Source of the DNA: Patescibacteria group bacterium
GTDB taxonomy: Bacteria > Patescibacteriota > Minisyncoccia > Phycocordibacterales > CAIZLB01
Assembly (NCBI GenBank): GCA_040386515.1
Contig: JAZKFG010000005.1
Location: 9,313-73,312, forward strand
DNA length: 64,000 bases
Reading direction: 5' to 3'
Made by a program: the position numbers and the translations under genes. Under the pieces are notes generated by a model. That model saw nothing but the letters and a program-made list of their open reading frames with translations, ran no database searches and was not told where the DNA came from. Positions 7,182-54,761 of this stretch are shown one piece after another; positions within the stretch are counted from its first letter, which is position 1; every line of letters starts with the position of its first letter.

Positions 7182-7201
7182 GGTTATGAGTATAGCATAT
7201 A

Positions 7202-8092: not shown

Positions 8093-8097
8093 TTTTG

Positions 8098-8529
8098 CTA
8101 TTTCATCTTAGTAAACACTCTATCATCCTTACTCTCATCAAGATTCGGCTGCATCTTTTTCCACACCACTTGCATACCTGCATTAGCTGGATAAAAGGTA
8201 AATAACACATCACCCTTCTCATAAGTTGGAAGTGTATTCTTTTCTCCATACGAATCAAAAACCACATCGAATCCACTTCCATTTTGAACTACTGCTGCAT
8301 TAATATCTTTCATTGTCTGAAATCCATCAACTGAAACATGTGCCTTTTCATTCTTTACCGTAACGACATATGACCATGTTTGATTTGGTGGTACGTATTC
8401 TCCAAACTCATATGTTCCATTTGGATTTGAGGTTGCATATCTACTGCACATGTATGCAATAAGTATGGCAATAAGCGCGATAGCTACAGCGACTAGGTTT
8501 ATGATAGTTCGTTTCTTTTTCATTTTCAT
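8098..8529 (-). CDS. Hypothetical membrane-anchored protein
   Basis: N-terminal TM helix (LVAVAIALIAILIAYM) followed by a soluble domain. Confidence 0.45.
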   Translation of the reverse strand: MKMKKKRTIINLVAVAIALIAILIAYMCSRYATSNPNGTYEFGEYVPPNQTWSYVVTVKNEKAHVSVDGFQTMKDINAAVVQNGSGFDVVFDSYGEKNTLPTYEKGDVLFTFYPANAGMQVVWKKMQPNLDESKDDRVFTKMK

Positions 8530-8580
8530 ATATTCGATTATACCATATCAAGAAACCTATAAATCTGCTATGCTCTCTAC

Positions 8581-9168
8581 ATGAACATAACTTCAGCTAC
8601 ATTTGTCCGAGGATGCACTCATGACACAAACCTCATACAAGACAACATTCCTCAAATAGCCTTTATTGGCCGATCAAATGTCGGCAAGTCTTCAGTGATC
8701 AATTCTCTCGTAGGAAGAAAAGCTCTAGCTCGATCTAGTTCAACTCCAGGCTTTACAAAAGAAGCTAATTTCTTTTTGATAAATGAAAACACATACATTG
8801 TCGATCTTCCAGGATACGGATTTGCCAAAGGATCAAAGTCTGACCAAGAAAAAATTATGCGACTTATTCAGTGGTATGTGTTTCATCCTGATCTTGAACA
8901 AAAAAAGATTGTATTAATTCTTGATGCAAAAGTAGGACCATCACCTCAAGATGTTGAGACACTTCGACAGCTTGAAGAAGCAGGTAAAGATATTGTGATC
9001 GTTGTAAATAAAGTAGATAAGGTAAAGCAAGGAGAACTAAATAAAACACTTAAAGTAATTGATAGTGTTGTTGGAGGCCATACAGTTATTCAATACTCTG
9101 CTGAGAAAAAGATCGGCGTTGATAAGTTACGAGAGGTCGTATTTACAACAGTTAATGATATACTGTAA
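8581..9168 (+). CDS. engB: Ribosome biogenesis GTP-binding protein EngB/YsxC
   Basis: G1 motif GRSNVGKSS, G3 motif DLPGYG and G4 motif NKVDK, with the length and motif order typical of EngB. Confidence 0.75.
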   Translation: MNITSATFVRGCTHDTNLIQDNIPQIAFIGRSNVGKSSVINSLVGRKALARSSSTPGFTKEANFFLINENTYIVDLPGYGFAKGSKSDQEKIMRLIQWYVFHPDLEQKKIVLILDAKVGPSPQDVETLRQLEEAGKDIVIVVNKVDKVKQGELNKTLKVIDSVVGGHTVIQYSAEKKIGVDKLREVVFTTVNDIL

Positions 9169-9170
9169 AA

Positions 9171-9683
9171 ATGTTTAAACTCGTTAAAATCTTTTTAATT
9201 TGTGGAGTAATATGTATAGGTCTCATTACCTTAATTGGAATGAGCGGTGATACAGAATCTGATGAACCAGTATATAAAGTACATAATTCAGAAGAGATGC
9301 ATAAAGTTATTAACACTCTGATCGAAACAGGCACTCCTGCAGATTGTAAAAGAATGAAAGCGCCGTGGTTTACATTTTCAGATGAAGCATTAAATCCAGA
9401 ATTAAATTGCATTTGGAAATTTGCAAAGGCAAAAAAAGATGTGTCTATATGTAAGCTAATACCCAGCGAACAATTAAACTCATACGAACGTTTTTGCATT
9501 GGCGATGTTGTCCGTATCACTAAGAATGTAAAAGATTGTGATCAATTTTCTGACACAATCAAAGATGGGTGTATTTCCGAAGTTTCTCAAGCAATACCGG
9601 ATAGATTAATATGTAAAAATATTACGACACCTGATACACAAAAAGGATGTGAAATGGTTTGGGATAATATTTTTAACCAATAA
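9171..9683 (+). CDS. Cys-rich membrane-anchored/secreted hypothetical protein
   Basis: N-terminal TM/signal segment, and at least 10 Cys residues in the ectodomain. Confidence 0.45.
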   Translation: MFKLVKIFLICGVICIGLITLIGMSGDTESDEPVYKVHNSEEMHKVINTLIETGTPADCKRMKAPWFTFSDEALNPELNCIWKFAKAKKDVSICKLIPSEQLNSYERFCIGDVVRITKNVKDCDQFSDTIKDGCISEVSQAIPDRLICKNITTPDTQKGCEMVWDNIFNQ

Positions 9684-29165: not shown

Positions 29166-29242
29166 GGGCGCAGTGGCGAAGTGGTTTAACGCGGCAGTTT
29201 GCAAAACTGATATTTCGCCGGTTCAAATCCGGCCTGCGCCTC
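29166..29242 (+). tRNA. tRNA-Cys (anticodon GCA)
   Basis: Acceptor GGGCGCA/TGCGCCT, anticodon loop TTGCAAA, T-arm GCCGG-TTCAAAT-CCGGC. Confidence 0.7.
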
Positions 29243-29260
29243 CTGTTGGATAAAATAGTC

Positions 29261-29343
29261 GCCTTGGTGGTGGAATGGTAGACACGAGAGACTTAAAATC
29301 TCTTAGCAGCAATGCTGTGCGGGTTCGAGTCCCGCCCGAGGCA
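29261..29343 (+). tRNA. tRNA-Leu (anticodon TAA), class II long variable arm
   Basis: Acceptor GCCTTGG/CCGAGGC, anticodon arm AGAGA-CTTAAAA-TCTCT, T-arm GCGGG-TTCGAGT-CCCGC. Confidence 0.8.
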
Positions 29344-29394
29344 CATAACAAGAAAGAGTATCCGAAAGGATACTCTTTCCATATTAGCCGAGGG

Positions 29395-29501
29395 AAAAGT
29401 CTGTAAGACTTTTAGGGATTCGAAAAGCTTTACGATGTTTGTGAGGACCTCTGGTCCGAATCAAACCGTAAAGGTGTACTGAAGCTGTAAGCTTCGAGTC
29501 C
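29395..29501 (+). ncRNA. Candidate structured RNA element in the tRNA-Cys/tRNA-Leu trailer (copy A; homologous to 59344-59456)
   Basis: Two hairpins with covarying stems, a closing helix GGATTC/GAGTCC, and conserved blocks CGAAAAGCTTT, TTGTGAG and AAAGGTGTACTGA shared with the tRNA-Lys trailer. Confidence 0.35.
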
Positions 29502-29517
29502 ATGTTATACTCTTCAT

Positions 29518-29907
29518 ATGAAAAAAGTATTTAAGATACTAATATACATATTCCTTATTACCTTATTGTGGGTTATATTTCTAAATACTTTTGGCATTAG
29601 ATTATTCGCAATACATGATTCTTTATTAGAAAGCAAGATCATGACTCTTTTAGATACAGAACATATCAATCTTCCTGAGGGAGAATATAATACTAGGAAA
29701 ACCTACATTCATAAATTTAATGATGATGATTATATTATCTATCAATATTATACTGGTATTCCAGATGACTCTTCATCATCTCTCAAAAAAACAATTATTC
29801 TCGGAGTTAATAATGATGGGAGCTTTTATATAAAATCTGAAAAGAGTAAATCTAACTGCTCTCGAGGTAAAGTTTGGTTTGGTCCTCATGCAGGTTGGTG
29901 TAAATAA
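29518..29907 (+). CDS. Hypothetical membrane-anchored protein
   Basis: N-terminal TM helix (ILIYIFLITLLWVIFL). Confidence 0.4.
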   Translation: MKKVFKILIYIFLITLLWVIFLNTFGIRLFAIHDSLLESKIMTLLDTEHINLPEGEYNTRKTYIHKFNDDDYIIYQYYTGIPDDSSSSLKKTIILGVNNDGSFYIKSEKSKSNCSRGKVWFGPHAGWCK

Positions 29908-29910
29908 TAT

Positions 29911-30381
29911 ATGAACAAATTTAAATACTCTATATACAAACTCACCCACCCTTTCTTCCGTCTCTATTGGAGAATCTTTAAACCTAAAACTTTTGGAACC
30001 AAAGCTTTACTTATATATAAAGACAGTATTCTTCTTACTAAGAATATTAATAGTTCACACTGGGGACTTCCTGGAGGAAAAATAGATAAAGGAGAAACTC
30101 CAGAACAATGTATTTGCAGAGAATTGCAAGAAGAGTTAACTTTATCTTGTTTAGTTCCAGAATTTAAACTTGGAACATTTACATCCAATAATGAAGGTAA
30201 AAGAGATACTGTATATGTATTTGCATTTCTCCTCCCTTCTCAAGATTTTACAAAGCAATGGGAATTACATGATGCAGAATGGTTTAGTATTACAGATTTA
30301 CCAAAAGACACAAGTCCAGCAACACTGAGGAGAATTAATGAGTTTAAAAACAATGAAAGAAATATAGTGAGTATTTGGTAG
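29911..30381 (+). CDS. NUDIX hydrolase
   Basis: Nudix box GGKIDKGETPEQCICRELQEELTL. Confidence 0.8.
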   Translation: MNKFKYSIYKLTHPFFRLYWRIFKPKTFGTKALLIYKDSILLTKNINSSHWGLPGGKIDKGETPEQCICRELQEELTLSCLVPEFKLGTFTSNNEGKRDTVYVFAFLLPSQDFTKQWELHDAEWFSITDLPKDTSPATLRRINEFKNNERNIVSIW

Positions 30382-30383
30382 AG

Positions 30384-33300
30384 TTACTCCCCATCAACAA
30401 CAGGAGCTGGAGTTTCAACCGGTGCAACAGGTTCAGGTGCAGGAGGAGTTACTTCTTCAGTGACTTCAGGTTCAGGAGTTGCACTTGATGAATCTGAAGG
30501 TGGAGGTACAACAGGTACTGTTGGTGCTGATGATGAATGTCCTCCTCCACCATTATTACCCTTTGCATTTAACATCATTTGCTTAAACTCTTGCTTTGTC
30601 ATACACACTTCCTCAACACAGAATTGTCCGTCGAGCTTGATTGAACTATTTTCAGGCACTGCCAGAGTTTTACCATCATCTTTAAACCATGCTGCAATCT
30701 GTTCAACTTTTGTCGCTAATTCTTTTACTGCATTTACAAGTGAAGCAAGAATAGGTCTGTCTGCAAGAGTTAAGAATCCTCGTGAATCAGTCGATACCGC
30801 TTCAGGAATTGCAGACTGAACATTCTGAGCACTAAATCCGGCATAACTATGTTCAGTGTCATATCCAGTTTCTATTTTCCATTTATACAAAATCGGATTA
30901 ATTTGCTTAATCTTATCAAGTCCAGAAATAAACATTCCTTGAATATCTTTTAGTCGTTCGTCAGATGATACGGTTACATTTCCAAGAGAATCAGTGATTA
31001 AGTTGGCACCCCCTGAACCAAGATTAATAAATCGAATTGTTCCAGATGCGGTCAATGTTGCTGATGGAGTACTTGTTCCAATACCCACATTTCCATTTGA
31101 AGTTATTCGCATTCGCTCAACATTATTCGAACCAAAGATAACATCAGTTGCATCAAGTGTTGCCATCATAATATTTCGTGAAGTTCCTGCCGTGTTAAAT
31201 ATTGCATCAACAGTATTTCTTGGAATTGATCCAAGGAAGTTTCCGGTGTAATTCACTCCTGCCTGGCTAAATGCAAAATAGTGATCAGATGTATCTTTGA
31301 TGAGGAATCTAAAGTCAGCTCCATTTCCTGTGCTTGTATTACCCATCTGAACCCCTGATGCACCGTTAAAGTTATCTGAAATATTTGCTGCAAACGTACT
31401 ATTACCTCCTATTGAAAGCGGAACAAAGGCAGCACTATTTGCGTTTACAGATAATTTGGCAAGCGGTGTTGTAGTTCCAATTCCAACATTTCCATTTGCC
31501 TGAACATTAAACAATGACGCATTAGATGCGCTCCAAATATCTATAATTGGGGCAGTTTGTGAAGTTGTTGCTTGTGCTGCAAATGTAGTACTGCCGATAT
31601 TAGTAGAAAATACATGCAACTTTGCTAAAGGTGATGTTGTTCCTATTCCGAAGTTTCCATTTGCATCCAGTGTCATTTTTGGAACAGTTCCTCCACCAGT
31701 TGTATCATTACTATAAAAAGTCAGAGCGTACGCAGATGACATTCTTAAGCCACGTGTGTTTCTCAAATCATAATCCATGTTAATACTTCCGTATTTTGTT
31801 CCTGTGTTTGTATTGCTAAATATCCAATCAAGACCGTAGCCCTGACCGGTCCCTCCTCCTCCAAGTGTAATACGTGTACTTCCTGTTTGATTACCTCCAA
31901 GATGTAATGCACTCATTGCAGAAGTGGTTCCAGTACTTATCCAACCATTTGAGGAATTAACAAACAATGCCGGCGCTGACGATGTTCCAACATTGAAACT
32001 ACCAGCAACATCAAGCTTTGCAGACGGTGACGAAGTTCCTATCCCAACATTTCCAGATGTTCCATCAATAACAAGCAACGGTGCTACTGTGTTTGTTATA
32101 AGAAACTTTCCAGCCCCTCCACTATTTGCAGAGCCGGTTGAAAGTATGTCAAAAGTTTTACCTCCAGTGTCTGTATTGACAAATTTCCAAACTGTACCAC
32201 CTGCTGCAGCAGAAGCCATTGTAAATAATGATCCAGGTGTTGTAGTTCCTATTCCGACATTTCCAGCAGATGTAATTCGAAGCCGTTCAGTTATGTTACC
32301 TGCATTTGGTCGAGTACTAAGAGCGATATATCCTCCATAATTTCCAGAAATTGAATCATCTCGTCCAGATCGAATCGCTGCATTAATTGCAACTGCCCCA
32401 GAGGTATTGTATTTTGCCCCGAATGAAAGCGTACCTCCATAATCTACAGTCGGTGACCCATCATTTGCAATAATGGCAACTTGACCCGAGCTAGTTCCAT
32501 TAACTAAAGTTTTATTCGGCGAAGCAAATACCGCTGTAAATGCTCGGTCAGAAGCACTACTTCCATCAAGTGTACCTGATTGAACACTCAATAAGCTGTT
32601 TGGAGAAGTTGTTCCAATTCCGACATTTCCAGCGTTAGTTATTTGAAATACAGACGTTCCATTTTTTGCAATTGAAACAAAATCAGCATTACCAGTGTTA
32701 TCAATTTTCAATGTTGGTGCAGCTGAGAAACCACTTTGTAGATGCATCAATGCAATACCAGGTTCATTTAATCGAACAAAAGATGTACCTGAAACATATA
32801 CATCTAATGCTGCTGCAGGCGTTGTTGTTCCAATTCCAACACTTCCAGCTAAGTAACCAACATTAGAACCATTAGTAATCCACTGACTACTCACCTTACT
32901 TGCCCACTCAGTTGTTGACGCACTAAGAGGAATTACATATCCTGAAGTGAGTGATAATATTCCAGTAGTAGATGAGTATGATAGTCCTGTTGCATCTGTT
33001 GAAAATGAATTCCGCACACTTGATGTACTAAATATTCCAGTGAGCTGCGAACCATCTCCAATAAATGCTGTGGCGTTCACATTTCCACTAAAGTAACCAT
33101 TACCAATTACTGAAAGTTTTTGCACTGGAGTTGTTGTGCCCATACCAACATTTCCATTATCCAAAATACTAAACAACGCAGTATTTGCAGAGTTGGTTGT
33201 CTGGAAGTTTATTCCCGTTGTTGTTCCAATCCCCTTTATTGCAAGACGTGAACTAGGAGTTGTCGTGCCTCCGATTCCGACATTGCCATTTAACAAAATA

Positions 33301-34598
33301 ATCATTTTTGCACTATCAGACGGACCGATAACGGTCGAGTTTGCAATTGCATTAGTTAATGATGTTCCAAAGGCAGAAGCATTGTTAGCAGTGACTGAAT
33401 TGGAAAATCCAAATGCCATACTATTTGATGAAGATGCGGCTATTACGTTATTGTATCCAAATGCATTACTCAAAGAACCTAAAGCGCTGTTATTATTTCC
33501 AAACGCCGACGTACGAAATCCATTTGCCGTATTGAGTGCACCCACTGCAGATGCATAATCCCCACCTGTTGCGAGGTTATTATTTCCGAAAGCACTTGCA
33601 TATTGTCCGACAAGACCAGCTGAGGTAGAACTACCTGCGACGTTTCCGGCACCGAATGCAGATGTCAAATGGCCGGCTGCCTTATTCTGCAATCCCATAG
33701 CACTATTTCCATACATCCAAGACAGAGAACCTGTTGCCACATTTGCCATACCTACTGAGATAGAATAATTACCTGCAATATTCCCATTTCCAATAGCGCC
33801 ACCTCCACCAGGAAATAGAGGGTCTACCATGTTATCAAGTCCGAATGTATATGAGTTTGAGGCTGCGGCAACCTGAGTTGGCAATGAGTGCGAAGACTGG
33901 ACATCTATTGACCCTGCACCTCGAGCATTACCACTTATGTCTCCCATTACGACAGCATTGTTTGAATTTATAACCTTAATATCACCCTGAACAGTTAGCG
34001 CTGAACCTGGCGTCGTTGTTCCAATTCCAACATTCCCTGTATTAAAATACGTATCACTGTCATTCATCAACCATGGTGATGTAGAAGCTGAACTAGCCGT
34101 AACATTCCAAGATGTTCCATCAGATACAAACAATGTATTTGAGACATTGTTAAAATACAAAGATCCAGCTGGACCTACTGTTGGCGCTGATGCATATGAA
34201 AATGCTCCAAAAGATTTTAATGCGGTTGGCGCAGCATTAAGTGCAGTTCGTGGAGATAAGTCAGTACCATTAATATTTACCTGAACATATAATGCTTGAT
34301 CAAAGTTAACACCAGTTGTGTCCGCTTCAGTAAAAGATGTTCCAAAATATCCGTTAGCAACAGTTATTGTTTTTGCAATTGGAGAACCTGTTACTACTCC
34401 TCCTGAGAGTGAATCGTAAAATGTAAATGTTGCGTTTACTGATGATGATACTGGCGCATTGTTACTGAAAAGTTGCCCTTGGAAACCGAGTGCTTTTGAT
34501 GGACTTGCAGCATATATATTTACAGCGAAAAAAAGCGTAGAAATTGCAGAAATGAGAATGGTAAATAAAGTTCTTCTCTTCATGATGCATACACGCAA
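30384..34598 (-). CDS. Giant secreted fibre-like protein (1404 aa), paralog 2 of 3. It has the same N- and C-terminal modules as paralogs 1 and 3, around an expanded Gly-rich repeat core.
   Basis: Signal peptide; the shared N-module AASPSKALGFQGQLFSNNAPVSSSVNATFTFYD...; at least 9 copies of the (N/A/S)GNVGIGTTTPxxxLxV repeat; and the C-terminal SSDERLKDIQGMFISGLDKIKQINPILYKWKIETGYD...RGFLTLADRPILASLVNAVKELATKVE with a Pro-rich tail. Confidence 0.85.
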   Translation of the reverse strand: MRVCIMKRRTLFTILISAISTLFFAVNIYAASPSKALGFQGQLFSNNAPVSSSVNATFTFYDSLSGGVVTGSPIAKTITVANGYFGTSFTEADTTGVNFDQALYVQVNINGTDLSPRTALNAAPTALKSFGAFSYASAPTVGPAGSLYFNNVSNTLFVSDGTSWNVTASSASTSPWLMNDSDTYFNTGNVGIGTTTPGSALTVQGDIKVINSNNAVVMGDISGNARGAGSIDVQSSHSLPTQVAAASNSYTFGLDNMVDPLFPGGGGAIGNGNIAGNYSISVGMANVATGSLSWMYGNSAMGLQNKAAGHLTSAFGAGNVAGSSTSAGLVGQYASAFGNNNLATGGDYASAVGALNTANGFRTSAFGNNNSALGSLSNAFGYNNVIAASSSNSMAFGFSNSVTANNASAFGTSLTNAIANSTVIGPSDSAKMIILLNGNVGIGGTTTPSSRLAIKGIGTTTGINFQTTNSANTALFSILDNGNVGMGTTTPVQKLSVIGNGYFSGNVNATAFIGDGSQLTGIFSTSSVRNSFSTDATGLSYSSTTGILSLTSGYVIPLSASTTEWASKVSSQWITNGSNVGYLAGSVGIGTTTPAAALDVYVSGTSFVRLNEPGIALMHLQSGFSAAPTLKIDNTGNADFVSIAKNGTSVFQITNAGNVGIGTTSPNSLLSVQSGTLDGSSASDRAFTAVFASPNKTLVNGTSSGQVAIIANDGSPTVDYGGTLSFGAKYNTSGAVAINAAIRSGRDDSISGNYGGYIALSTRPNAGNITERLRITSAGNVGIGTTTPGSLFTMASAAAGGTVWKFVNTDTGGKTFDILSTGSANSGGAGKFLITNTVAPLLVIDGTSGNVGIGTSSPSAKLDVAGSFNVGTSSAPALFVNSSNGWISTGTTSAMSALHLGGNQTGSTRITLGGGGTGQGYGLDWIFSNTNTGTKYGSINMDYDLRNTRGLRMSSAYALTFYSNDTTGGGTVPKMTLDANGNFGIGTTSPLAKLHVFSTNIGSTTFAAQATTSQTAPIIDIWSASNASLFNVQANGNVGIGTTTPLAKLSVNANSAAFVPLSIGGNSTFAANISDNFNGASGVQMGNTSTGNGADFRFLIKDTSDHYFAFSQAGVNYTGNFLGSIPRNTVDAIFNTAGTSRNIMMATLDATDVIFGSNNVERMRITSNGNVGIGTSTPSATLTASGTIRFINLGSGGANLITDSLGNVTVSSDERLKDIQGMFISGLDKIKQINPILYKWKIETGYDTEHSYAGFSAQNVQSAIPEAVSTDSRGFLTLADRPILASLVNAVKELATKVEQIAAWFKDDGKTLAVPENSSIKLDGQFCVEEVCMTKQEFKQMMLNAKGNNGGGGHSSSAPTVPVVPPPSDSSSATPEPEVTEEVTPPAPEPVAPVETPAPVVDGE

Positions 34599-34695
34599 GT
34601 GATGCTTATATTATATGCGTTTTTCGTAACTTTAACAAGAAAAAACTCCACAGAATTGTGAAGTTTTTTCGAGCAAATTTTTTACAATTTTTTAA

Positions 34696-35322
34696 CTAAT
34701 AATTTGACTGAAAAGTGGCCGGATATGTCACACTAACTTCCCCATTTGCAGATGTTGCAACTGCTCTAAAATAATATGTTCGATTTGACTCAAGCGGAAG
34801 CGAAACAACATTGTTTGCTGTAAGCAAACTTGTGCCCGTCATCACCCCTGTACCGCTCAAAGTAACGGTCATTGGAGTCACAAATACATTTTCTGTTCCC
34901 GTGATTGGAGAAGTACTGTAGAATACGCTTACTCGACTAGGAATATTTGTATTTACATTAAATGTAGCTGTATTTCCATTCAATGTTACTCCAACAGGAG
35001 TTGTAAACATTGGCGCTGAACCTAATGTAGTCCCGCCCATTTGTGAATTTATAACCGACATGGTCTGAGGACCAACTCTTCCTACTTGGCTAATGCCATT
35101 TTTAGCCTGAAATCTAGTTACCGCCGCTTTTGTAAGTGATCCAAAGTACCCTGTTACAAGTCCTGATGGATACACGCTGCTATCCGTTGCGAGAAATCTC
35201 TGCAAATCAGAGACATCTGTTCCTTGCGAACCTAACTCTAATTGTCTTGTCAGAGCTGCAAAAGTTAATGCAGGTGCCAAGGCAAACGCTAAACAAATTA
35301 ATACTATGTTGAATTTTTTCAT
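34696..35322 (-). CDS. Secreted protein with a peptidoglycan-binding (PG_binding_1-like) domain
   Basis: Signal peptide plus the GTDVSDLQRFLATDSSVYPSGLVTGYFGSLTKAAVTRFQAKNGI motif typical of PGRP-type PG-binding repeats. The C-terminal half is Thr/Val-rich and beta-rich. Confidence 0.5.
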   Translation of the reverse strand: MKKFNIVLICLAFALAPALTFAALTRQLELGSQGTDVSDLQRFLATDSSVYPSGLVTGYFGSLTKAAVTRFQAKNGISQVGRVGPQTMSVINSQMGGTTLGSAPMFTTPVGVTLNGNTATFNVNTNIPSRVSVFYSTSPITGTENVFVTPMTVTLSGTGVMTGTSLLTANNVVSLPLESNRTYYFRAVATSANGEVSVTYPATFQSNY

Positions 35323-35511
35323 AAGTTTATTTTAATTGGAATTAACTGTCACTATGAATAATTATAAGTATTGAGCTTGTAGCATAACTCAAATATTGTT
35401 AAAGAATATTCTTGGGATGCACGACAAGAATGTTAATGCGCGGAAACTGCTACATAATTAATTATGTGCACGTTTGCTAACTCATGACAAGGACTTATGC
35501 ACCGAAAAAGA

Positions 35512-36540
35512 CTATGAAATCGTAATGTGTTTAATCTTCCGTATTACCTTATGATATATATCTTTTACAGCCATCAATTCGTGTTCATGTGTAAGCTTTT
35601 TGGGGAGCGCTGGTATTTTGCTTCGAAGCTTGGCACTTGTCGGACTTTCATGCTGAATAACATACATGAGTGCTTCAGTTAAAAACTTGGCCGACTGCAT
35701 AGGAACAAGCGGTGCCGCAACAAAGGGCTCAAATTCATATGCATCTCCTACTCGCGTCGCAATACACGGAACATGCATATACATTGCGGTCAATAACGTA
35801 TATAAATCACCTGAACTCGTTCGAGGGGAAATAAATATATCGAAGGCAGGAATATATTGTTCAGGATTTTCCACCTGATCAACAATAAAACAAATCCCCT
35901 GAACATGTGAATTTTCAATTTGCTTTTGCAAAGCAGAATCAACATGACCATCATGCAAAATAACAAAAATAGTATTAGTTAAGTTTTTATATTTATCGGC
36001 GAGATAGGCAGCATCAATCAAATGCTCGACCCCATTCCCTTCATCCTGTCGTATAACAGTTCCAACTATTCGAATATTTTTTGTAAATGCAATGCCAAGC
36101 TTTTTATATATAAAACTTCGGGCTGTGTCTTTTTTTAATATCTCAGTTGTAGGAATCAAATCAATGCCGCGATAAATAAGCGAACGCTTTGATTTTCCAG
36201 CAAGGTGATATTGATCAATATGATCCATATCGTATTTTGAAGTACAAATTGTATGACCATACAAATGTCGTGCACACAGTTGTTTTAAAATATACCAATA
36301 GGTAAACATTATCGGCGCATATAATGTGCGGACAACTTTGATTCTATGCAAAAAAGCAATTAGTGCATATATGCCAAAAGTTTCCTTACCTGTTGCGCGC
36401 ATATGAATAACATCAGGAGTTGTTTCTTTGAGCACATTCCAAAAACGCTTATAGTCAGAAAACCCTTTCTCTACAAGGTAAATATCCTGCTCTGGTATGT
36501 GAGGAGGAGTATATGAATGTATAAAGTGTAATACTCTCAC
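35512..36540 (-). CDS. GT4-family (GT-B fold) glycosyltransferase
   Basis: 342 aa. N-terminal MRVLHFIHSY and a C-terminal donor-binding half typical of group 1 glycosyltransferases. Confidence 0.55.
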   Translation of the reverse strand: MRVLHFIHSYTPPHIPEQDIYLVEKGFSDYKRFWNVLKETTPDVIHMRATGKETFGIYALIAFLHRIKVVRTLYAPIMFTYWYILKQLCARHLYGHTICTSKYDMDHIDQYHLAGKSKRSLIYRGIDLIPTTEILKKDTARSFIYKKLGIAFTKNIRIVGTVIRQDEGNGVEHLIDAAYLADKYKNLTNTIFVILHDGHVDSALQKQIENSHVQGICFIVDQVENPEQYIPAFDIFISPRTSSGDLYTLLTAMYMHVPCIATRVGDAYEFEPFVAAPLVPMQSAKFLTEALMYVIQHESPTSAKLRSKIPALPKKLTHEHELMAVKDIYHKVIRKIKHITIS

Positions 36541-36578
36541 GCATGTATATTATACCGCGATATACAAAAGCATACTAA

Positions 36579-39449
36579 TTACTTAATCATGCTTAATGGA
36601 GACTTCACTTCTTCTTTTTTCTCTTCCTTTTTATATTTTTCCATAATACCTTCTTCAACCATATCTCGATCTTGACCGTATGTTAGATATGAAAGCTCTT
36701 TAAGATTTTCTACAATATTTGGATTGCCTTTTTCTTGCGGCATCATTTGTATGTTAAATGGCTTTGTCGGCTTTCCATATGAGAGCATTTTCACATAGGC
36801 ATTAAAGTTATCAATATTCATAATATCGTTCGCCATAAAAGTGGGCTCAAATTGCTTTTCAAGATATTCTGCATCCTCAGCACCAACTCGATAGACCACC
36901 ATATTTCCAACGTTACCAAACACAGATGCCTTGATTTTATCATCAAGCTGAGCAATGAACTGATGAGCCATTGTAAGCGACAATTTATACTTTCGTGCCT
37001 CTGACAAAATAGTTGAAATAGACGGTGTGGTTACGTTTTGGAACTCGTCGATATACAAATAAAACGGCGGCATATCTTTTCCGAATGAATCCACACGCGA
37101 AAGTGCGGCCATCAAAATCTTTCCTACAATAATCAAACCGATAAGGTTAGAGTTAATTTCACCCAACTTTCCTTTTGCCAAGTTCACCAGCAAAATCTTT
37201 TTCTTATCCATGATTTCTCGAAAATTAAAACTAGAATGTTCCTGAGCGATAATCGGTCGCATAATATCATTGGCCAAAAATACATCAAACTTTGATGTGA
37301 TATATGGCACCATGTTTGCAAGGCCAGATTCCCCGCTTGTCTTTTCTGCAATTTCAACCCAAAATTGCCGCACGATCGGATTTTTACATCGTGAGATTTT
37401 CATGTCTCGGAAGCTTTTAACGGCCATTACTCGAGAAACATCAAGGAGTGTACACCCGCTCGATGGATCTTCGATTACAAGCATTGTGGCATTTCTAAAA
37501 TACTGCTCAAACATCGGCCCCATACTTTCAGGCACGCCACCGTATAACTTTTGGAAAATACTAAAAAGCTCGTTTACCACGAATGTTTTTTGCTCAGGAT
37601 GCGATGGATCATATTCGAGCATGTTCAATGCCATTGGACGTTCTGTATAACTTGGATCAAAATAAATAACATCATCAAATCTATCCTTTGGGATTTTTGA
37701 AAGAATATCCTGAATGTCAGATCCGTGCGGGTCGATAAAACACACTCCTTCTCCATTTTTAATATCTTGAAGAATGAGATTTTTAAGAATACTTGATTTA
37801 CCCACACCAGTTTGTCCGATCACATACATGTGTCGAAGTCTGTCTTCTGGCGCCATGTAAACTGGCTGTTCAACATTTCTATGAAGATTCTTACCGAGAA
37901 GCACACCTGTGCGAGGAAGGTCGAGTGGGGCCGGAGCAGTTCCAGCTTTTGACTGCTTGAGCTGCGGCGCATTTGTAGCTCCAGAAAGCATTGGAAAATG
38001 CATCACACTCGAAAGCTCTTTTATAGAAAGCGGAATAATTTCTTTTTGATTAAAAATACGAAATGAAAAATCATGCAAAAAACTTTGTAGTCTAGCTTTC
38101 TCTGGTCGCTCCCACGAAAATCCATTTCCAAGCGCATTATTAAACTGATTAAAACTTGATTCAAGATCAGAAAGTATTTGCTCGGCACGAATCGTATTCG
38201 CAGCTGATGCAACAAGACGAATATTTGTTTCAACAATTGGCGTAGTTATTTTCTTGGTGATTTGCTCAAGGGCTATCTGGTCAACAACTTTTTCTTTATC
38301 TTTTTTATTTTTATCATCTCCATTGACTGCGTGCTCAACCAATTCTTTCCCAAGCTCTCCTGCAGCTTTAGTAAAATGTCCCCACATGGTGTGGCGAATA
38401 TCGATAGACTTTTTCAACGAATCACCCTTACGCACTTTATCAAGAGACTCTTTAAAAAGCTTTGTATAATAATCTCCGACCTGACTAAATACAACCTGCA
38501 CAGATGCCCCTTCTCCCTCTCTTTGAATCTTAGAGAGCGTATTGAGTGTTACCTGCAAAGGATCATGATCAAATTCATCATACATTTTTATAGGAAAAAT
38601 TTCATTCTTAGTTGAAGTTGCATATGAGCCAACGCTTGATCCATCAGAGTTAAAGATATTATAATCGTCATGTTTTATTTCTATTTTTGCACCTGGAAAT
38701 ACAGACAAAATATGCTTTTCAAAAAGATCCGCTTTTGCATCTGGAATAGAAACATAGAAAATAAATTCTTCACTTGCATCAGCCACTGCAAGCTCAATAG
38801 TCATATGATTTTTACTATCTCCCTGCTTTTTACCAGCATCAGAAATAGACATCATACCTGCATAAAATTGTTCCATTGCAGAAAGAAGTTCTTTCAATGG
38901 CCGTTGTCCTGCATCTTTTTTATCAGCTTTAAAATCAGGCAAAGACACTTCATACAATGTATGCGTGATTGATTTTTGTATTGGCTCGCCTTCTTTTAAA
39001 TCCTTAATTGTTAAACCCGCTTTCAAATATTCAACAAGAAATCTATGGAAATCATCTTCGAGATGAGGGTTTTTGGTTTGATGAATGGCAGACAAAGCAT
39101 TATGAATACCGTATTTTTCCATTAAGGTAAAATACTCTTCCATGTTTTTATCATGTGCTTCAGGCGAAAGCTTAAGAACTATTTCTGTACCTCGAGTCTC
39201 ATGCTCTTGAGGTGTAGCCTTATACGATTCATGCAAAAGATCACGGCCAGTATTGGCATGATATTCTTTTATTTCCTCGCGGATAATCTGATCCTGTTCT
39301 TTTTGTCCGCCAATAGTTGCTTCATGTGCTTTTACTTGCGCACGTAAATAATCCAACTCTTCTTCTAAGGTTGTAAAAGGTTTTTTTTCAGGCTCTGCAG
39401 AGAGATTAGGTTGGCCTGCAATATTTTCTATGTGTTCTCTATCGATCAT
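36579..39449 (-). CDS. P-loop ATPase of the FtsK/HerA/VirB4/TraG superfamily (AAA_10/DUF87-like) with a ~500-aa uncharacterised N-terminal domain
   Basis: Walker A GQTGVGKSS is followed by CFIDPHGSDI, which matches the DPxGE motif of DUF87/VirB4/VirD4 ATPases. Walker B is YLYIDEFQ, and a downstream RKYKLSLTMAHQ matches the RK...Q motif of conjugative ATPases. No TM helices. Confidence 0.55.
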   Translation of the reverse strand: MIDREHIENIAGQPNLSAEPEKKPFTTLEEELDYLRAQVKAHEATIGGQKEQDQIIREEIKEYHANTGRDLLHESYKATPQEHETRGTEIVLKLSPEAHDKNMEEYFTLMEKYGIHNALSAIHQTKNPHLEDDFHRFLVEYLKAGLTIKDLKEGEPIQKSITHTLYEVSLPDFKADKKDAGQRPLKELLSAMEQFYAGMMSISDAGKKQGDSKNHMTIELAVADASEEFIFYVSIPDAKADLFEKHILSVFPGAKIEIKHDDYNIFNSDGSSVGSYATSTKNEIFPIKMYDEFDHDPLQVTLNTLSKIQREGEGASVQVVFSQVGDYYTKLFKESLDKVRKGDSLKKSIDIRHTMWGHFTKAAGELGKELVEHAVNGDDKNKKDKEKVVDQIALEQITKKITTPIVETNIRLVASAANTIRAEQILSDLESSFNQFNNALGNGFSWERPEKARLQSFLHDFSFRIFNQKEIIPLSIKELSSVMHFPMLSGATNAPQLKQSKAGTAPAPLDLPRTGVLLGKNLHRNVEQPVYMAPEDRLRHMYVIGQTGVGKSSILKNLILQDIKNGEGVCFIDPHGSDIQDILSKIPKDRFDDVIYFDPSYTERPMALNMLEYDPSHPEQKTFVVNELFSIFQKLYGGVPESMGPMFEQYFRNATMLVIEDPSSGCTLLDVSRVMAVKSFRDMKISRCKNPIVRQFWVEIAEKTSGESGLANMVPYITSKFDVFLANDIMRPIIAQEHSSFNFREIMDKKKILLVNLAKGKLGEINSNLIGLIIVGKILMAALSRVDSFGKDMPPFYLYIDEFQNVTTPSISTILSEARKYKLSLTMAHQFIAQLDDKIKASVFGNVGNMVVYRVGAEDAEYLEKQFEPTFMANDIMNIDNFNAYVKMLSYGKPTKPFNIQMMPQEKGNPNIVENLKELSYLTYGQDRDMVEEGIMEKYKKEEKKEEVKSPLSMIK

Positions 39450-39535
39450 ATATTGTTACGATTTCATATATAAGTATACCTATGTCGTCTCGATAAAGAA
39501 AGAACAAAAAAAATAATCGCTCCGATATGTTGCGA

Positions 39536-40345
39536 TTATTTTTCTTCTGTTAATATTTCACATCCGTTTTTGGTAACCACAATAGTATGTTCTACATGTA
39601 CACTCAATCCTTTATCCTGAGTCGCATATGTATATCCATCTTTAAGCAGTTTCATTCGAGGGCTTTTTTCAGTTAGAATAGGCTCAATAGCTAAAACCAT
39701 TCCTTCTCGAAGTATTGGGCCGCTTCCTTTTTTACCGAAGTTAGGCATAAACGGATCTTCATGCACACCATGTCCAATACCATGTCCACCAAGCTCATAT
39801 GGAAGTGAAAACTTATGTGTTTTATCATGCGATGCCAATACAGTCTTTTCTATAGCATGACCCACTGTACCAGTTCGCACTCCTGGCTTTACTGTGGCCA
39901 GAGCGGCCGCTAGAGCCTCTGTAGCCACTTGTATCATGCGAGAACCAACTGTATTGTAACTATCCCCACCCACAACAATTGTGACAGCACTGTCGGTAAA
40001 TAGCCCCTTATAGATCAATCCCATATCCAGGACGACAACGTCTCCGCTCTTTAATGTTTTAGGATTTTCATTTGGTATTCCGTGGACGATTTCTTCATTT
40101 ACAGAAATACAAATAGCTCCTGGAAATGGCCGAGTAGCACCTCCTGGCGTATAGTTTAAAAATGCAGGAACAGCTCCAACTTCTTCACAAAGTTTTCGAG
40201 CTTCTTTATCAAGTTCCAATGTTGTTACGCCAGCTACAGTTTTTGCTTTCAGCGTATTTAAAATTTGCGCCAAAAAACGCCCACCTTCTCGAAGTAGGTT
40301 GATTTCATTTTCCGTATAAATTGTAATTGGTGAATATGAAGACAT
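39536..40345 (-). CDS. map: Methionine aminopeptidase, type I
   Basis: 269 aa with the metal-binding residues of the pita-bread fold. It sits at the canonical position after adk and secY. Confidence 0.9.
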   Translation of the reverse strand: MSSYSPITIYTENEINLLREGGRFLAQILNTLKAKTVAGVTTLELDKEARKLCEEVGAVPAFLNYTPGGATRPFPGAICISVNEEIVHGIPNENPKTLKSGDVVVLDMGLIYKGLFTDSAVTIVVGGDSYNTVGSRMIQVATEALAAALATVKPGVRTGTVGHAIEKTVLASHDKTHKFSLPYELGGHGIGHGVHEDPFMPNFGKKGSGPILREGMVLAIEPILTEKSPRMKLLKDGYTYATQDKGLSVHVEHTIVVTKNGCEILTEEK

Positions 40346-40351
40346 GATATA

Positions 40352-40969
40352 TTAAGCAGGCAAATGAGATCGAATGAGTGCTTGCACTTCTTCAATACTG
40401 CCTTCGCCTGGAATTTGAACGAAATCAAATCGCGGATTTGCTTTAAAGTATTCAACAGCCTGCATCACTTCAGTTTCAAACCAGTGTGATCGAAGCTCAA
40501 GTTGTTCTTTTGTCTGATCATCAACTCGCCCACGCTCATGCATACGAGCAACAGACCAGTCATGACTCACATCTAAGAATACGATTTTTGGTTTTACAAA
40601 AAGTGTTTCGTCGAATCTATTGTAAAATGACAAAGCATCTTCAATAATTTTTGCTTCTGTAAGAGATCGAGGAGCACCGTCGAACATAATATGCTCTTCG
40701 GCTGTATAGTCTTTACACAAGATATATCCCCACATGCTTATGGCAAGAAATTCAGGTTCTCGTCTTCCCTCAAGATATGCTTGCTTTGCAAGATTTCCAG
40801 AAACTGTTTTTTCTTCGATAAATGAACGAAAATACACACCTGTTTCTATGTGAATCATTTGCGCATTTGCATCTTGCTGCTTAAAGTATTCTTCTAAAAG
40901 CTTTATCTGAGTACCCTTTCCTGAACCAGAGCGACCAATGCATATTATAGTTTGAGGTAACATATGCAT
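40352..40969 (-). CDS. adk: Adenylate kinase-like protein
   Basis: P-loop GRSGSGKGTQ (compare GPPGAGKGTQ) and FDGAPRSLTEA (compare LDGFPRT). Canonical position between secY and map. Confidence 0.75.
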   Translation of the reverse strand: MHMLPQTIICIGRSGSGKGTQIKLLEEYFKQQDANAQMIHIETGVYFRSFIEEKTVSGNLAKQAYLEGRREPEFLAISMWGYILCKDYTAEEHIMFDGAPRSLTEAKIIEDALSFYNRFDETLFVKPKIVFLDVSHDWSVARMHERGRVDDQTKEQLELRSHWFETEVMQAVEYFKANPRFDFVQIPGEGSIEEVQALIRSHLPA

Positions 40970-40989: not shown

Positions 40990-42264
40990 TTAATACTCTC
41001 GCATTCCGATCTGAGCATCTGTCTTTTTGATGATATCAATGATAGTTGAAACCACGATAAGCACTCCAGTTCCTCCGATTGTAATAGACGCAATTCCAGT
41101 GAATGACTGTACAATACTTGGCAGAATTGCAATCAATCCTAGGAATAGGGCTCCAACAAGAGTTGTTCGAGTTACGATCTTTGACAAATAATCAATTGTT
41201 GCATCTCCTGGTCGAATACCTGGAACAAATGCTCCGCCTCGCTGTAGGTTTTCTGATATTTTCTTTGGATCAAATGTGATCGCTGTGTAGAAGTACGTAA
41301 AGAAGAATACAAGAAGGAAATACAATATTCCGTGTACAAGTGCATTTTGCAACCAGTATGACAAGAATGTTCCAGCATTTGCCAAGAAAGGCACACTTGA
41401 AGTCTTGATAAAGTTTGCGATAAATGATGGGAACATCAAAAGTGTAAGCGCAAAGATAATTGGCATTACTCCAGCTTGGTTTAGACGAATTGGAATATAT
41501 GTCTGAGTACTTCCTGCTCCCTGACTTGCAGATGAACGAGCCTGACGAGCATATGTAACTGCAACAAGTCTTTCTGCCTCAGTGATGTAAATAATTGCTG
41601 CGATAGCAAGAATTACAAGTACAACCATTGCAATAAGCGTTGGAGCTTGTGATGGGTCATATGTTGCAATTACTCGAGACAATGCTTGTGGAAATCCTGA
41701 GATAATACCTGTTGCAATAATAAGAGATATACCATTTCCAATACCAAATTCTGTAAGTCGTTCACCAATCCACATAAGGAGTACTGATGAGGCAACTACA
41801 ATGATACCGATTTGAATAAATCCAAATGCTGACAATGCACCAAATACATCTGGAGATTGCTTGCTGATAATTGCTACAAGACTAAATGTCTGAATAAGCG
41901 CAAGCGGCACAGTAAGCATTCGACTATATTGTGAAAGCTTCTGTCGTCCAGCAGCTCCTTCTTCTTGCTGTAATTCCTTCATTCGAGGGAATATCATAGT
42001 CATCAACTGAACAATGATAGACGCAGTGATGTATGGTCCAGCTCCAAGCATAAGAATTGATAGACTTGAAAGTCCACCTCCTGAGAATAGGTTAAGAACC
42101 TGGAAGAAACTATTGTCTCCAAGAAATCGTTCAAGTGCCAGAGTGTTAACTCCAGGAACTGGAATAGCTGATAACGCACGAAAAACTATAAGCATGCCGA
42201 GTATGAAGAATACTCGATTACGTATAGTTTTTTCGGCGAAAATTGTTTTTAGTTTAGTTAGCAT
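40990..42264 (-). CDS. secY: Preprotein translocase subunit SecY
   Basis: 424 aa with 10 TM helices. Canonical position after L15. Confidence 0.95.
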   Translation of the reverse strand: MLTKLKTIFAEKTIRNRVFFILGMLIVFRALSAIPVPGVNTLALERFLGDNSFFQVLNLFSGGGLSSLSILMLGAGPYITASIIVQLMTMIFPRMKELQQEEGAAGRQKLSQYSRMLTVPLALIQTFSLVAIISKQSPDVFGALSAFGFIQIGIIVVASSVLLMWIGERLTEFGIGNGISLIIATGIISGFPQALSRVIATYDPSQAPTLIAMVVLVILAIAAIIYITEAERLVAVTYARQARSSASQGAGSTQTYIPIRLNQAGVMPIIFALTLLMFPSFIANFIKTSSVPFLANAGTFLSYWLQNALVHGILYFLLVFFFTYFYTAITFDPKKISENLQRGGAFVPGIRPGDATIDYLSKIVTRTTLVGALFLGLIAILPSIVQSFTGIASITIGGTGVLIVVSTIIDIIKKTDAQIGMREY

Positions 42265-52898: not shown

Positions 52899-54761
52899 TT
52901 ATTCTGTTGTTGTGTCTGTTACTGGTGCCGGAATTGGATCTGGCACAGGTTGTACAGCTGGTTCAACCTCAGGTGCTGGCGCTGGTGTAACTGGTACTTC
53001 AACTATTTGTTCAGGAGTACTGCTTGAAGTCGGTGCTGGTGGAGGTACAGAAGGAAGCGGCTGCTGAATAATATTAATGTTTTGACTTGTCATCAGTGTT
53101 TCAATTTGATCCCCTGTTATACAAACTTCTTGACCATTAGTTTTTTGAACACATAGATTTTTAGTTTTAACAATATCGGTCTCTACAAGTTTTGTTTTAA
53201 CCGCTTCAGCAAATCCCTCCACCTTAGCAGCAAGCTCCTTCACCGCATTCACAAGCGCCGCAAGGATAGGACGGTCAGCTAATGTAAGAAAACCTCGTCC
53301 ATCTGTTCCTACAGCTTCTGGAATATTTTCTTGAACATTTTGTGCACTAAATCCTGCATATGCATTTGTTGTATCGTACCCAGTCTCTGGTTTCCATTTA
53401 TACATGATTGGGTTAAGACCTAGGATTTTCTCTAATCCTGTTTTAAATTCTCCTTGTATATCCTTTAGTCTTTCGTCAGATGATACGGTTACGTTACCAA
53501 GTGCATCAGTTGAGAGTGATCCTGCACCAAGTGATGCAAAACGTACTGTTCCTGTTGTTGTAAATTGAGCTGTTGGGGTTGAGGTTCCGATGCCGACAAA
53601 TCCGTTTGCCATAATTCTCATTCTTTCAGAAGTGGTTGTTCCGACAGTCGTACCAAATATTAAATCGGTATCAAGCACAGTCGGAGTGTGGACCTGTGCG
53701 GACATAGCACGAATGAATGCAGTTGTTGTTCCTGGATCTGTGAGCTGCGAGTCGTTACTTGAAAAATTAATCATTCCAATTGGTTCATTTGCAGATATAG
53801 CGTAACGAAATGATCTAAGGTTGAGACTTCCACTAGATGAGGCGGCACCAGTTAGGACATATGTGCCCGATCCAGCTACAACCAAACGAGCATCCACAAC
53901 TGAAGAACCTATGCCAACATCTCCAGGAGTAGTAATAATCATTTTATCACTACTTGCAGTTGTGTTTGTTGCAGCACGGTTTGCATTTCCAAAACGCAAC
54001 ACACCAGCTGACATACGCATATAGCCAAATGGACGACCTACTGGATCGGCAGAATCAGCAACATTAGTATCCTCTATTCGAAGGAATCCACCATTAGCAC
54101 CAGAAATTCTAAGTGATGCGGTTCCAGCAGGATTCACCACATGAAAAAGTTCACTTGGAGTACTCGTTCCAACCCCAACCTTTCCAGCAATATAAGTAAT
54201 ATCAGTACCACTTGTTACCCATGGAGTTGATACAGTCCACGTTGTTCCGTTTGATATATACAGAGTGTTATCAGTTGTATTGAAATACAGAGATCCAGCT
54301 GGACCAACTGTTGGTGCACTTGCATATGAGAATGCTCCAAAAGACTTAAGAGCAGTAGGGACTGCATTCAAAGCAGTTCGAGGACTTAGATCTGTACCGT
54401 TGATATTTACCTGAACATACAATGCTTGATTGAAGTTTACTCCTGTTGTATCTGCTTCTGTAAATGATGTTCCAAAGTAACCATTTGCAACAGTTACTGT
54501 TTTTACAATCGGAGAACCTGTTACAGCTCCACCTGAGAGTGCATCATAAAATGTAAATGTTGCATTTACTGATGATGAAAGTGGAGCTCCACTACTATAT
54601 AGCTGTCCTTGAAAGCCAAGAGACTTTGAAGGAGAGGCAGCGAAGATAGTTGTTGCTGAAAATATACCAACAACAAGCATGGCAGACAAAAGATATTTTT
54701 TTGTAGTTAAAGTTCGTTTCATGTATATAGTTATTGTATATGTTTTTTCACTAATTAACAA
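52899..54761 (-). CDS. Secreted fibre-like protein, paralog 3 of 3 (conserved N-module, Gly-rich core, S74-like C-terminal domain, Pro-rich tail)
   Basis: 620 aa. Signal peptide; N-module AASPSKSLGFQGQLYSSGAPLSSSVNATFTFYD...; C-terminus SSDERLKDIQGEFKTGLEKILGLNPIMYKWKPETGYD...RGFLTLADRPILAALVNAVKELAAKVE; Pro/Ala/Val-rich tail. Confidence 0.8.
   Translation of the reverse strand: MLISEKTYTITIYMKRTLTTKKYLLSAMLVVGIFSATTIFAASPSKSLGFQGQLYSSGAPLSSSVNATFTFYDALSGGAVTGSPIVKTVTVANGYFGTSFTEADTTGVNFNQALYVQVNINGTDLSPRTALNAVPTALKSFGAFSYASAPTVGPAGSLYFNTTDNTLYISNGTTWTVSTPWVTSGTDITYIAGKVGVGTSTPSELFHVVNPAGTASLRISGANGGFLRIEDTNVADSADPVGRPFGYMRMSAGVLRFGNANRAATNTTASSDKMIITTPGDVGIGSSVVDARLVVAGSGTYVLTGAASSSGSLNLRSFRYAISANEPIGMINFSSNDSQLTDPGTTTAFIRAMSAQVHTPTVLDTDLIFGTTVGTTTSERMRIMANGFVGIGTSTPTAQFTTTGTVRFASLGAGSLSTDALGNVTVSSDERLKDIQGEFKTGLEKILGLNPIMYKWKPETGYDTTNAYAGFSAQNVQENIPEAVGTDGRGFLTLADRPILAALVNAVKELAAKVEGFAEAVKTKLVETDIVKTKNLCVQKTNGQEVCITGDQIETLMTSQNINIIQQPLPSVPPPAPTSSSTPEQIVEVPVTPAPAPEVEPAVQPVPDPIPAPVTDTTTE

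Follow-up and report, generated by a model that had tools for sequence, protein, structure and literature searches.

An orphan VirB4/VirD4-clade ATPase of Patescibacteria and its small soluble partner

The 64-kb window analysed here (the whole stretch of 64,000 nucleotides of contig JAZKFG010000005.1, from a low-GC metagenome-assembled genome (MAG) of Patescibacteria) carries, on the minus strand downstream of map, a gene for a soluble ATPase of 956 residues, at which the composition profile shows no marked shift. The gene is followed, in the same orientation, by genes for a GT4-family glycosyltransferase (GT), a peptidoglycan (PG)-binding protein and a large fibre (Table 1). A first-pass annotation, made from the sequence alone, had recognised these four co-oriented open reading frames (ORFs), all of which are found where it placed them, and had assigned the ATPase to the VirB4/HerA/TraG superfamily, quoting the motifs GQTGVGKSS, FIDPHGSD, YLYIDEFQ and RKYKLSLTMAHQ. 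The four motifs are indeed present, the superfamily is the right one (see below), and Pfam domains bear out the identities given to the three downstream products, the fibre ending up with a Peptidase_S74 domain to its name. At NCBI, a 100%-identical protein is called 'type IV secretory system conjugative DNA transfer family protein'. The analysis presented here shows that the ATPase is built from three pieces, a helical module of about 150 residues, a DUF8128 domain with a VirB4-type fold and a RecA-type ATPase domain, and that it is a strongly conserved core chromosomal gene of Paceibacteria-type Patescibacteria. A soluble hybrid is the best description for it, the architecture of VirB4 being combined with a catalytic sequence resembling that of the coupling proteins.

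Table 1. Features of the ATPase gene and its surroundings (positions in the window; aa, amino-acid residues of the product)
Feature	Position	Strand	Evidence or remark
ATPase of the VirB4/VirD4 clade, 956 aa, soluble, long form (partner + DUF8128 + ATPase)	36579..39449	-	ORF, Pfam, AlphaFold2 model
N-terminal extension, aa 1-150, fused copy of small soluble helical partner	39000..39449	-	hhalign, hidden Markov model
DUF8128 domain, aa 150-520, VirB4-type fold	37890..39002	-	
RecA-type ATPase domain, aa 521-940, helical insertion aa 620-725	36630..37889	-	
Walker A GQTGVGKS, aa 545-552	37794..37817	-	G545, G548, K551 unchanged across 79 diverse homologues
Walker B YLYIDE, aa 797-802	37044..37061	-	D801, E802 invariant
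RKYKLSLTMAHQ motif, aa 819-830	36960..36995	-	aligns to TrwB RKAGLRVVAGLQ; R819, K820, Q830 invariant
map, type I methionyl aminopeptidase, conserved upstream neighbour	39536..40345	-	TIGR00500, 5.5e-73
adk	40352-40969	-	between secY and map
secY	40990-42264	-	upstream, in ribosomal-protein cluster
Terminator-like hairpin and T-run in the 86-nt map-ATPase gap	39508..39544	-	dG -13.8 kcal/mol, z -3.3 vs shuffles
GT4-family glycosyltransferase	35512..36540	-	Glyco_trans_1_4 1.3e-10, Glyco_transf_4 8.2e-8; 38-nt gap to ATPase
Promoter-like site upstream of PG-binding gene, in the 189-nt gap from GT	35461-35490	-	10/12 match
PG_binding_1 protein, signal-peptide-like N-terminus	34696..35322	-	Pfam 8.2e-12
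Terminator-like hairpin and T-run after PG-binding gene	34639..34670	-	dG -17.5 kcal/mol, z -4.8, 0/200 shuffles as stable
Promoter-like site TTGTTA-17-TATAAT before fibre	34610..34638	-	10/12 consensus match
Fibre, 1404 aa, signal-peptide-like N-terminus, Peptidase_S74 chaperone domain	30384..34598	-	Pfam S74 2e-11

The N-terminal half of the ATPase had been presented as a novel N-domain with neither a recognisable motif nor a transmembrane (TM) segment. Only the last point stands. A hydropathy scan detected no TM segment in the protein and no hydrophobic segment of any kind within residues 1-520; the sole hydrophobic window (KD19 > 1.6, residues 765-783) corresponds, in the AlphaFold2 model, to a core helix that precedes Walker B. 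On the other hand, this half carries DUF8128 (PF26449), a domain already catalogued, an assignment taken from the precomputed Pfam annotation of the 100%-identical protein and of all 120 listed homologues. The AlphaFold2 model, built from an alignment of 79 sequences (mean pLDDT 87.7, pTM 0.77), was compared with known structures by means of Foldseek. Full-length TrwK/VirB4 ranked at the top, over about 900 aligned columns, with TrwB, Cagbeta, HerA and DotL covering just the ATPase half of about 410 residues. The fold of DUF8128 is presumably that of the VirB4 N-terminal domain. In addition to this VirB4-type N-terminal domain, the ATPase possesses an all-alpha domain inserted in the nucleotide-binding domain, which is a trait of type IV coupling proteins (T4CPs). 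When the ATPase domain was compared by itself, the figures were 31.2 for the C-terminal domain of a monoderm VirB4 (4ag5), 29.8 for DptH, 28.4 for TrwB, 26.1 for HerA and 24.3 for DotL. The modelled fold puts the catalytic domain in the VirB4/VirD4/HerA clade, with no choice made within that clade.

Sequence comparison places the C-terminal half with the T4CPs, TrwB, DotL and TraD being the closest. The Pfam families T4SS-DNA_transf (35.0 bits, cut-off 20.1), TraG-D_C (28.0, cut-off 22) and TrwB_AAD_bind (22.1, cut-off 20.5), and likewise DUF87, all match the ATPase above their cut-offs; the NCBIfam models for T4CPs remain far below theirs (SXT_TraD, 68 bits versus 366; conj_TOL_TraD, 48 versus 648; the CD1115 VirD4-like model, 34 versus 250). 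Searching the PDB sequences with the single ATPase sequence gave only a weak match to the P-loop of TrwB. A profile of 79 diverse homologues retrieved TrwB at 2.4e-7 and DotL at 1.3e-5, and no VirB4 chain at E <= 0.01. Nor did any VirB4 family (CagE_TrbE_VirB, AAA_10, TIGR VirB4/TrbE) match the ATPase at this threshold in Pfam and NCBIfam. The KAP NTPases, which the first-pass annotation had named as an alternative, are absent from the Pfam matches at E <= 0.01, and the protein does not pair a HerA N-terminal barrel domain with a NurA or other effector partner.

Many relatives of the ATPase have a length of about 800 residues, and their alignment with the query begins at residue ~150. In the loci inspected, almost all of these short forms have directly before them, on the same strand, an ORF of about 125-150 residues that abuts or overlaps the ATPase start. 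A hidden Markov model (HMM) made from residues 88-150 of the long forms was run against the 11,761 ORFs present on both strands of all the fetched loci (E <= 0.01). It matched 48 times within long-form ATPase ORFs, 15 times in the ORF immediately upstream of the ATPase (14 short-form loci and one long-form locus) and nowhere else among the 11,761 ORFs. The partner was detectable in 13 of the 31 short-form loci that have sufficient upstream sequence. Moreover, hhalign aligned 22 partner ORFs to the long-form alignment with 96.1% probability (E 3.3e-9), columns 4-130 of the partner, i.e. the whole of it, corresponding to residues 19-146 of the long form. The ATPase of the window is therefore a partner-ATPase fusion, in which a module of about 150 residues, encoded by a separate small gene directly upstream of the shorter relatives, has become part of the same polypeptide. 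The core common to partner and extension is helical and contains the motif KG(V/I)..A...(N/D)P(Y/H).LD.FHD.L; in the extension, the conserved motif GIHNALSAIHQTKNPHLEDDFHRFLVEYLKAG occupies residues 114-145. No Pfam domain was found in the partner proteins, whose annotation is hypothetical protein only.

The order of the two genes, partner then ATPase, resembles that of virB3 before virB4, and in the R388 structure VirB3 is wrapped about VirB4's N-terminal domain (PMC9259494). VirB3, however, is a membrane protein, whereas the partner is soluble: no TM helix was detected either in the partner ORFs (maximum KD19 <= 1.4) or in the N-terminal extension. The idea that the partner might be a VirB3-like membrane protein was rejected for this reason.

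The ATPase is widespread. In a word-indexed search its homologues numbered more than 2,187; the 120 of them that were listed share 58-100% identity with the query, and all those that bear an organism name belong to Patescibacteria or Parcubacteria. An exhaustive search of representatives returned 21,054 clusters with the threshold set at E <= 1e-3 and still 5,234 with E <= 1e-30, and a relative is encoded in at least 596 species genomes. The long form is carried by genomes of the Nomurabacteria, Kaiserbacteria, Zambryskibacteria and Taylorbacteria type, and its ATPase half is almost invariant. Over 79 sequences, with identities down to 29%, the invariant positions include, besides the residues of Walker A, Walker B and the RKYKLSLTMAHQ motif given in Table 1, D573, P574 and G576 of the DPxG motif, as well as E817 and Q834. 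Since the catalytic residues are invariant and the ATPase half is conserved, the protein is predicted to be an active enzyme, with purifying selection acting on an intact catalytic site. More distant relatives, 20-28% identical, are encoded by Bacillus phages (gp156 of phage G) and by plasmids of Bacillus, Streptomyces, Sulfolobus and haloarchaea; the phage family phrog_5156 matches residues 188-948 at 3.4e-81. Some relatives reach 1,400-2,000 residues, the DUF8128-ATPase core being N-terminal and followed by a C-terminal extension of 600-1,200 residues (e.g. P0171, P0173, P0181, P0191).

Synteny was scored on 86 distinct related loci, each count covering only the loci with sufficient flanking sequence and genes on the same strand. 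The map gene lies within 4 kb upstream of the ATPase in 21 of 39 long-form loci and in none of 15 short-form loci, and ndk within 2.5 kb downstream in 21 of 43 and 1 of 27, respectively. About half of the long forms thus follow adk-map, where the ribosomal-protein/secY cluster ends, and ndk comes after them equally often. It had been noted that the block begins after map, at the place where infA, rpmJ, rpsM, rpsK, rpsD, rpoA and rplQ usually follow. None of these seven genes is among the window ORFs scanned and none follows map in the six relatives for which gene lists are available: the spc and alpha operons, normally joined, are separated in this lineage. Around the short forms, no Pfam family occurs in more than 3 of the 122 flanking ORFs. 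Two individual loci deserve mention. In one relative (L003, 67% identity), an HTH transposase-like gene, an unannotated ORF and an RVT_1 reverse-transcriptase gene are found between map and the ATPase (6519-9607); the outer synteny, adk-map on one side and ATPase-ndk on the other, is intact. In another (L008, 76% identity), map is not upstream, and the ATPase lies in a different housekeeping context (rplS, rplJ, NUDIX), with no type IV secretion system (T4SS) genes.

Among the distant homologues, one, encoded by the Bacillus subtilis plasmid NZ_OX419581.1 (L088, 7749-17598), was looked at closely. It is a soluble protein of 913 residues, without TM segment, that contains both parts of the N-domain and the ATPase, the three profile segments matching it at E 9e-24, 4e-24 and 5e-43. 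Its gene is directly upstream of a replication-relaxation gene, after which come TcpC-, TcpD-, TcpE- and VirB4-like genes. The protein occupies the position expected of a conjugative coupling protein, and Tcp-type conjugation systems may have in it a kind of coupling protein that has so far gone unrecognised. In PLSDB the plasmid is classed as non-mobilizable. The context of this homologue points to an ancestral coupling role in DNA transfer.

A survey of 3,035 Patescibacteria genomes by Quinonero-Coronel et al. (2025) found VirB4 in 2,417 of them, usually near dnaA/dnaN (PMC12102498). The same authors counted 5,713 VirD4-type T4CP homologues in 2,918 genomes, of which just 148 were near virB4, and stated that exaptation "cannot be ruled out" (PMC12102498). 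Almost certainly, the ATPase of the window belongs to these orphan T4CP homologues, so that neither the gene as such nor its orphan state is new. As for the VirB4-type fold of DUF8128, the small partner with its fusion, and the map/ndk synteny, our literature searches did not turn them up, and a search on DUF8128 returned no papers. Wang et al. (2023; PMC10633639) reported that, in 'Ca. S. epibionticum', neither a coupling protein nor a relaxase is recognisable at the essential T4SS locus.

How, then, might this ATPase work? The reading that we put forward, which in our judgement stands about an even chance of being right, is that of a core chromosomal motor of the VirB4/VirD4 type, probably a ring-forming polymer translocase that docks to a T4SS. 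By analogy with its structural relatives, the ATPase would probably assemble into a ring, and this ring would probably spend ATP on threading a polymer, either DNA or unfolded protein, through its pore. The VirB4-like N-domain and the small partner would then form a docking surface by which the motor is coupled to a second machine. For this machine, the chromosomal T4SS of most Patescibacteria would be the best candidate, because the N-domain of VirB4 is where small T4SS subunits bind and because the plasmid homologue belongs to a conjugation cluster. The tails of VirB8 bind the outer VirB4 subunit in the R388 T4SS. A bolder proposal, which we regard as tentative, is that the orphan T4CP homologues constitute a two-component motor in its own right, which would be a third branch next to VirB4 and VirD4 and would be made of a small soluble helical partner and an ATPase that pairs a VirB4-type N-domain with a VirD4-type catalytic domain; it would act as a coupling ATPase for the T4SS or as a motor for DNA uptake or transfer.

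Several observations weigh against a T4SS-docked motor. No T4SS component other than the ATPase is found among the ORFs scanned in the window, as the first-pass annotation had remarked in calling the gene an orphan, and no T4SS, relaxase or mating-pair-formation gene is near the ATPase at the related loci examined; the 25 most frequent families among the 122 neighbour ORFs include no T4SS family, and so none of the VirB6, VirB8 or TcpE type. The link to the T4SS is therefore one that we infer. In 'Ca. S. epibionticum', a t4cp homologue (not necessarily of the DUF8128 type) is not essential, whereas the T4SS genes are (PMC12102498). T4CP homologues occur in more genomes than VirB4 (2,918 and 2,417, respectively; PMC12102498), and this wider spread hints at a role independent of the T4SS. 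Lastly, neither the ATPase nor its partner has a membrane anchor, and the fold of the ATPase domain fails to separate VirB4, VirD4, DptH and HerA.

The strongest of the other explanations is that the ATPase and its partner are an exapted DNA motor acting alone, in the cytoplasm or at the membrane, for instance in DNA import during natural transformation or in the processing of the chromosome or nucleoid, as HerA and FtsK do. The purely housekeeping neighbourhoods, the distribution of T4CP homologues compared with VirB4 and the reported dispensability of t4cp favour it. Nevertheless, the combination of a VirB4-type N-domain with a T4CP-type sequence is a signature of type IV secretion, no nuclease, helicase or competence gene recurs beside the ATPase among the 122 neighbour ORFs (at most three of them share a Pfam family), and the excess of T4CP homologues over VirB4 could stem from the incompleteness of MAGs. 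We consider an exapted motor possible, but less probable than one that docks to the T4SS.

A motor for defence against phages or plasmids, translocating on foreign DNA in the manner of DptH/DndH (Dnd) or mad8 (MADS), is improbable. The resemblance of the ATPase domain to DptH is quoted above, and PADLOC reports a mad8/HerA match; this match is partial, being confined to the ATPase core, so that a defence system is not supported, and no Dnd or MADS model match (DptH, mad8) occurs together with the cognate partner genes. No methylase, nuclease, Sir2 or other effector is encoded in the window or in the neighbour ORFs scanned. Furthermore, the gene keeps a fixed place on the chromosome among housekeeping genes and is highly conserved, unlike typical defence islands.

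The three genes downstream of the ATPase raise a different question, since the first-pass annotation had suggested that the four genes could form a dedicated module by which the fibre is exported, assembled and glycosylated. Such a module would also anchor the fibre. The genes are adjacent and co-oriented, and ATPase, GT and PG-binding genes are found together in one relative (L001) whose ATPase is 83% identical. In addition, the 38-nt gap between ATPase and GT (36541-36578) contains no significant hairpin (z -0.3), so that these two genes could be co-transcribed. GTG is the start codon of the GT gene, with a perfect TATAAT some 10 nt upstream; its product aligns to the Glyco_transf_4 profile only from profile position 50 on. 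The gene order is nevertheless not conserved in relatives, an outcome that the first-pass annotation had itself named as refuting its proposal: downstream of the long forms, the GT and the PG-binding gene are each present in 1 of 43 loci and the fibre in none, and downstream of the short forms all three are absent from the 27 loci scored. The window and L001 share the backbone map - ATPase - GT - PG-binding - ... - rbfA - infB - aminotransferase - PLD - ThrRS, the GT being only 50% identical between them as against 83% for the ATPase. The stretch from the PG-binding gene to rbfA/infB is variable. In the window (29167-34598) it holds the fibre, a NUDIX gene, an unannotated ORF of 129 residues, tRNA-Leu and tRNA-Cys, and in L001 (14927-15972) PDZ and DUF378 genes, the NUDIX gene, the ORF and the two tRNAs of the window not being listed there.

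Signals for transcription and secretion also speak against a common module. Within the 97 nt that separate the PG-binding gene from the fibre, the terminator-like hairpin comes first and the promoter-like site next (Table 1), although such calls are consensus scans whose regional counts are no higher than in shuffled sequence, and they are weak evidence when taken alone. Of the four gaps from map to the fibre gene, three contain signals of this kind, the exception being the 38 nt between ATPase and GT. As regards export, the hydrophobic N-terminus of the PG-binding protein, MKKFNIVLICLAFALAPALTFA/A, resembles a Sec signal peptide, and the fibre has a signal-peptide-like N-terminus of its own together with its own S74 chaperone domain. 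The mechanical start of the fibre ORF is TTG 34598; an ATG five codons downstream (34583), which yields the Sec-signal-like MKRRTLFTILISAISTLFFAVNIYA/ASP, is the more likely one. The fibre also matches tail-fibre families of PHROG (7e-29 and 1e-23). Two further S74 fibre-like proteins are encoded in the window on the minus strand, one of 740 residues (3957-6179) and the other of 620 residues (52899-54761); one of their genes is beside a prepilin peptidase gene, tuf and the S10 operon come directly downstream of the other, and no such ATPase adjoins either. Three S74 fibres in 64 kb suggest a multi-copy family of surface fibres. Type IV pilus genes are present as well, encoding PilM (1.3e-33) and a prepilin peptidase that has A24 domains, at 447-1568 (-) and 6240-7181 (-). 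If one adds that the ATPase has no membrane anchor, a fibre module becomes very improbable. None of the three genes is evolutionarily linked to the ATPase: the GT and PG-binding genes are lineage-specific neighbours outside the conserved unit, and the fibre is a variable insertion, whose place next to the ATPase is coincidental.

Least probable of all is that the gene is the decaying remnant of an integrated conjugative element (the first-pass annotation, too, had mentioned a remnant), an idea that its orphan state and the distant homologues on conjugative-type plasmids and in phages would favour: the 956-residue ORF is intact, no integrase, relaxase or repeats flank it within the window, the composition shows no marked shift, and the strong conservation of the 120 listed homologues, with every catalytic residue invariant, argues against decay. 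The same annotation's other wording, a novel variant of a type IV-like secretion ATPase, remains a fair description.

Patescibacteria are ultra-small and dependent on host cells. In the single cultivated model that has been studied, the chromosomal T4SS is essential and its locus is reported to have no coupling protein that can be recognised, and thousands of orphan T4CP homologues lie elsewhere in these genomes. One of these orphans is now shown to have a VirB4-like, putative docking domain, a small partner of its own, which is fused to it in one lineage and encoded by a separate gene in others, and an intact catalytic site under strong selection. This architecture, together with the partner, provides a testable hypothesis for a motor that plugs into a membrane machine, a two-gene unit that lends itself to genetics and a handle on the role of the orphan coupling-type ATPases that abound in Patescibacteria. 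The annotation as an operon for fibre export and glycosylation, tempting from adjacency, can be removed.

How does the ATPase compare with known systems? Type IV coupling proteins (VirD4, TrwB, TraD, DotL, Cagbeta) have an N-terminal TM anchor, in place of which the window ATPase has a VirB4-like N-domain of 370 residues and a fused soluble partner; it is not beside relaxase or mating-pair-formation genes, and it is a conserved chromosomal gene, not a mobile one. VirB4 itself (TrwK of R388; VirB4 of Thermoanaerobacter pseudethanolicus) differs in sequence, the window ATPase matching no VirB4 family and no VirB4 in the PDB, and in context, since the upstream partner has no TM helix, unlike VirB3, and no VirB3, VirB6 or VirB8 genes are near. 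The canonical VirB4 of Patescibacteria is reported to lie near dnaA/dnaN. Among the soluble DUF87/T4CP-like ATPases of plasmids and phages, the one checked closely, the B. subtilis plasmid protein, also consists of an N-domain and an ATPase without TM segment; these ATPases are, however, only 20-28% identical and reside on mobile elements, the Bacillus plasmid protein adjoining relaxase-like and Tcp conjugation genes, unlike the window ATPase, and the annotations retrieved for these plasmid and phage proteins contain no characterised function. With the orphan T4CP homologues of Patescibacteria, which were counted without a description of their architecture (PMC12102498), the likeness is such that it is almost certainly one of them: like them, the window ATPase matches a VirD4-type HMM, is chromosomal, is far from virB4 and comes from a Patescibacteria MAG.

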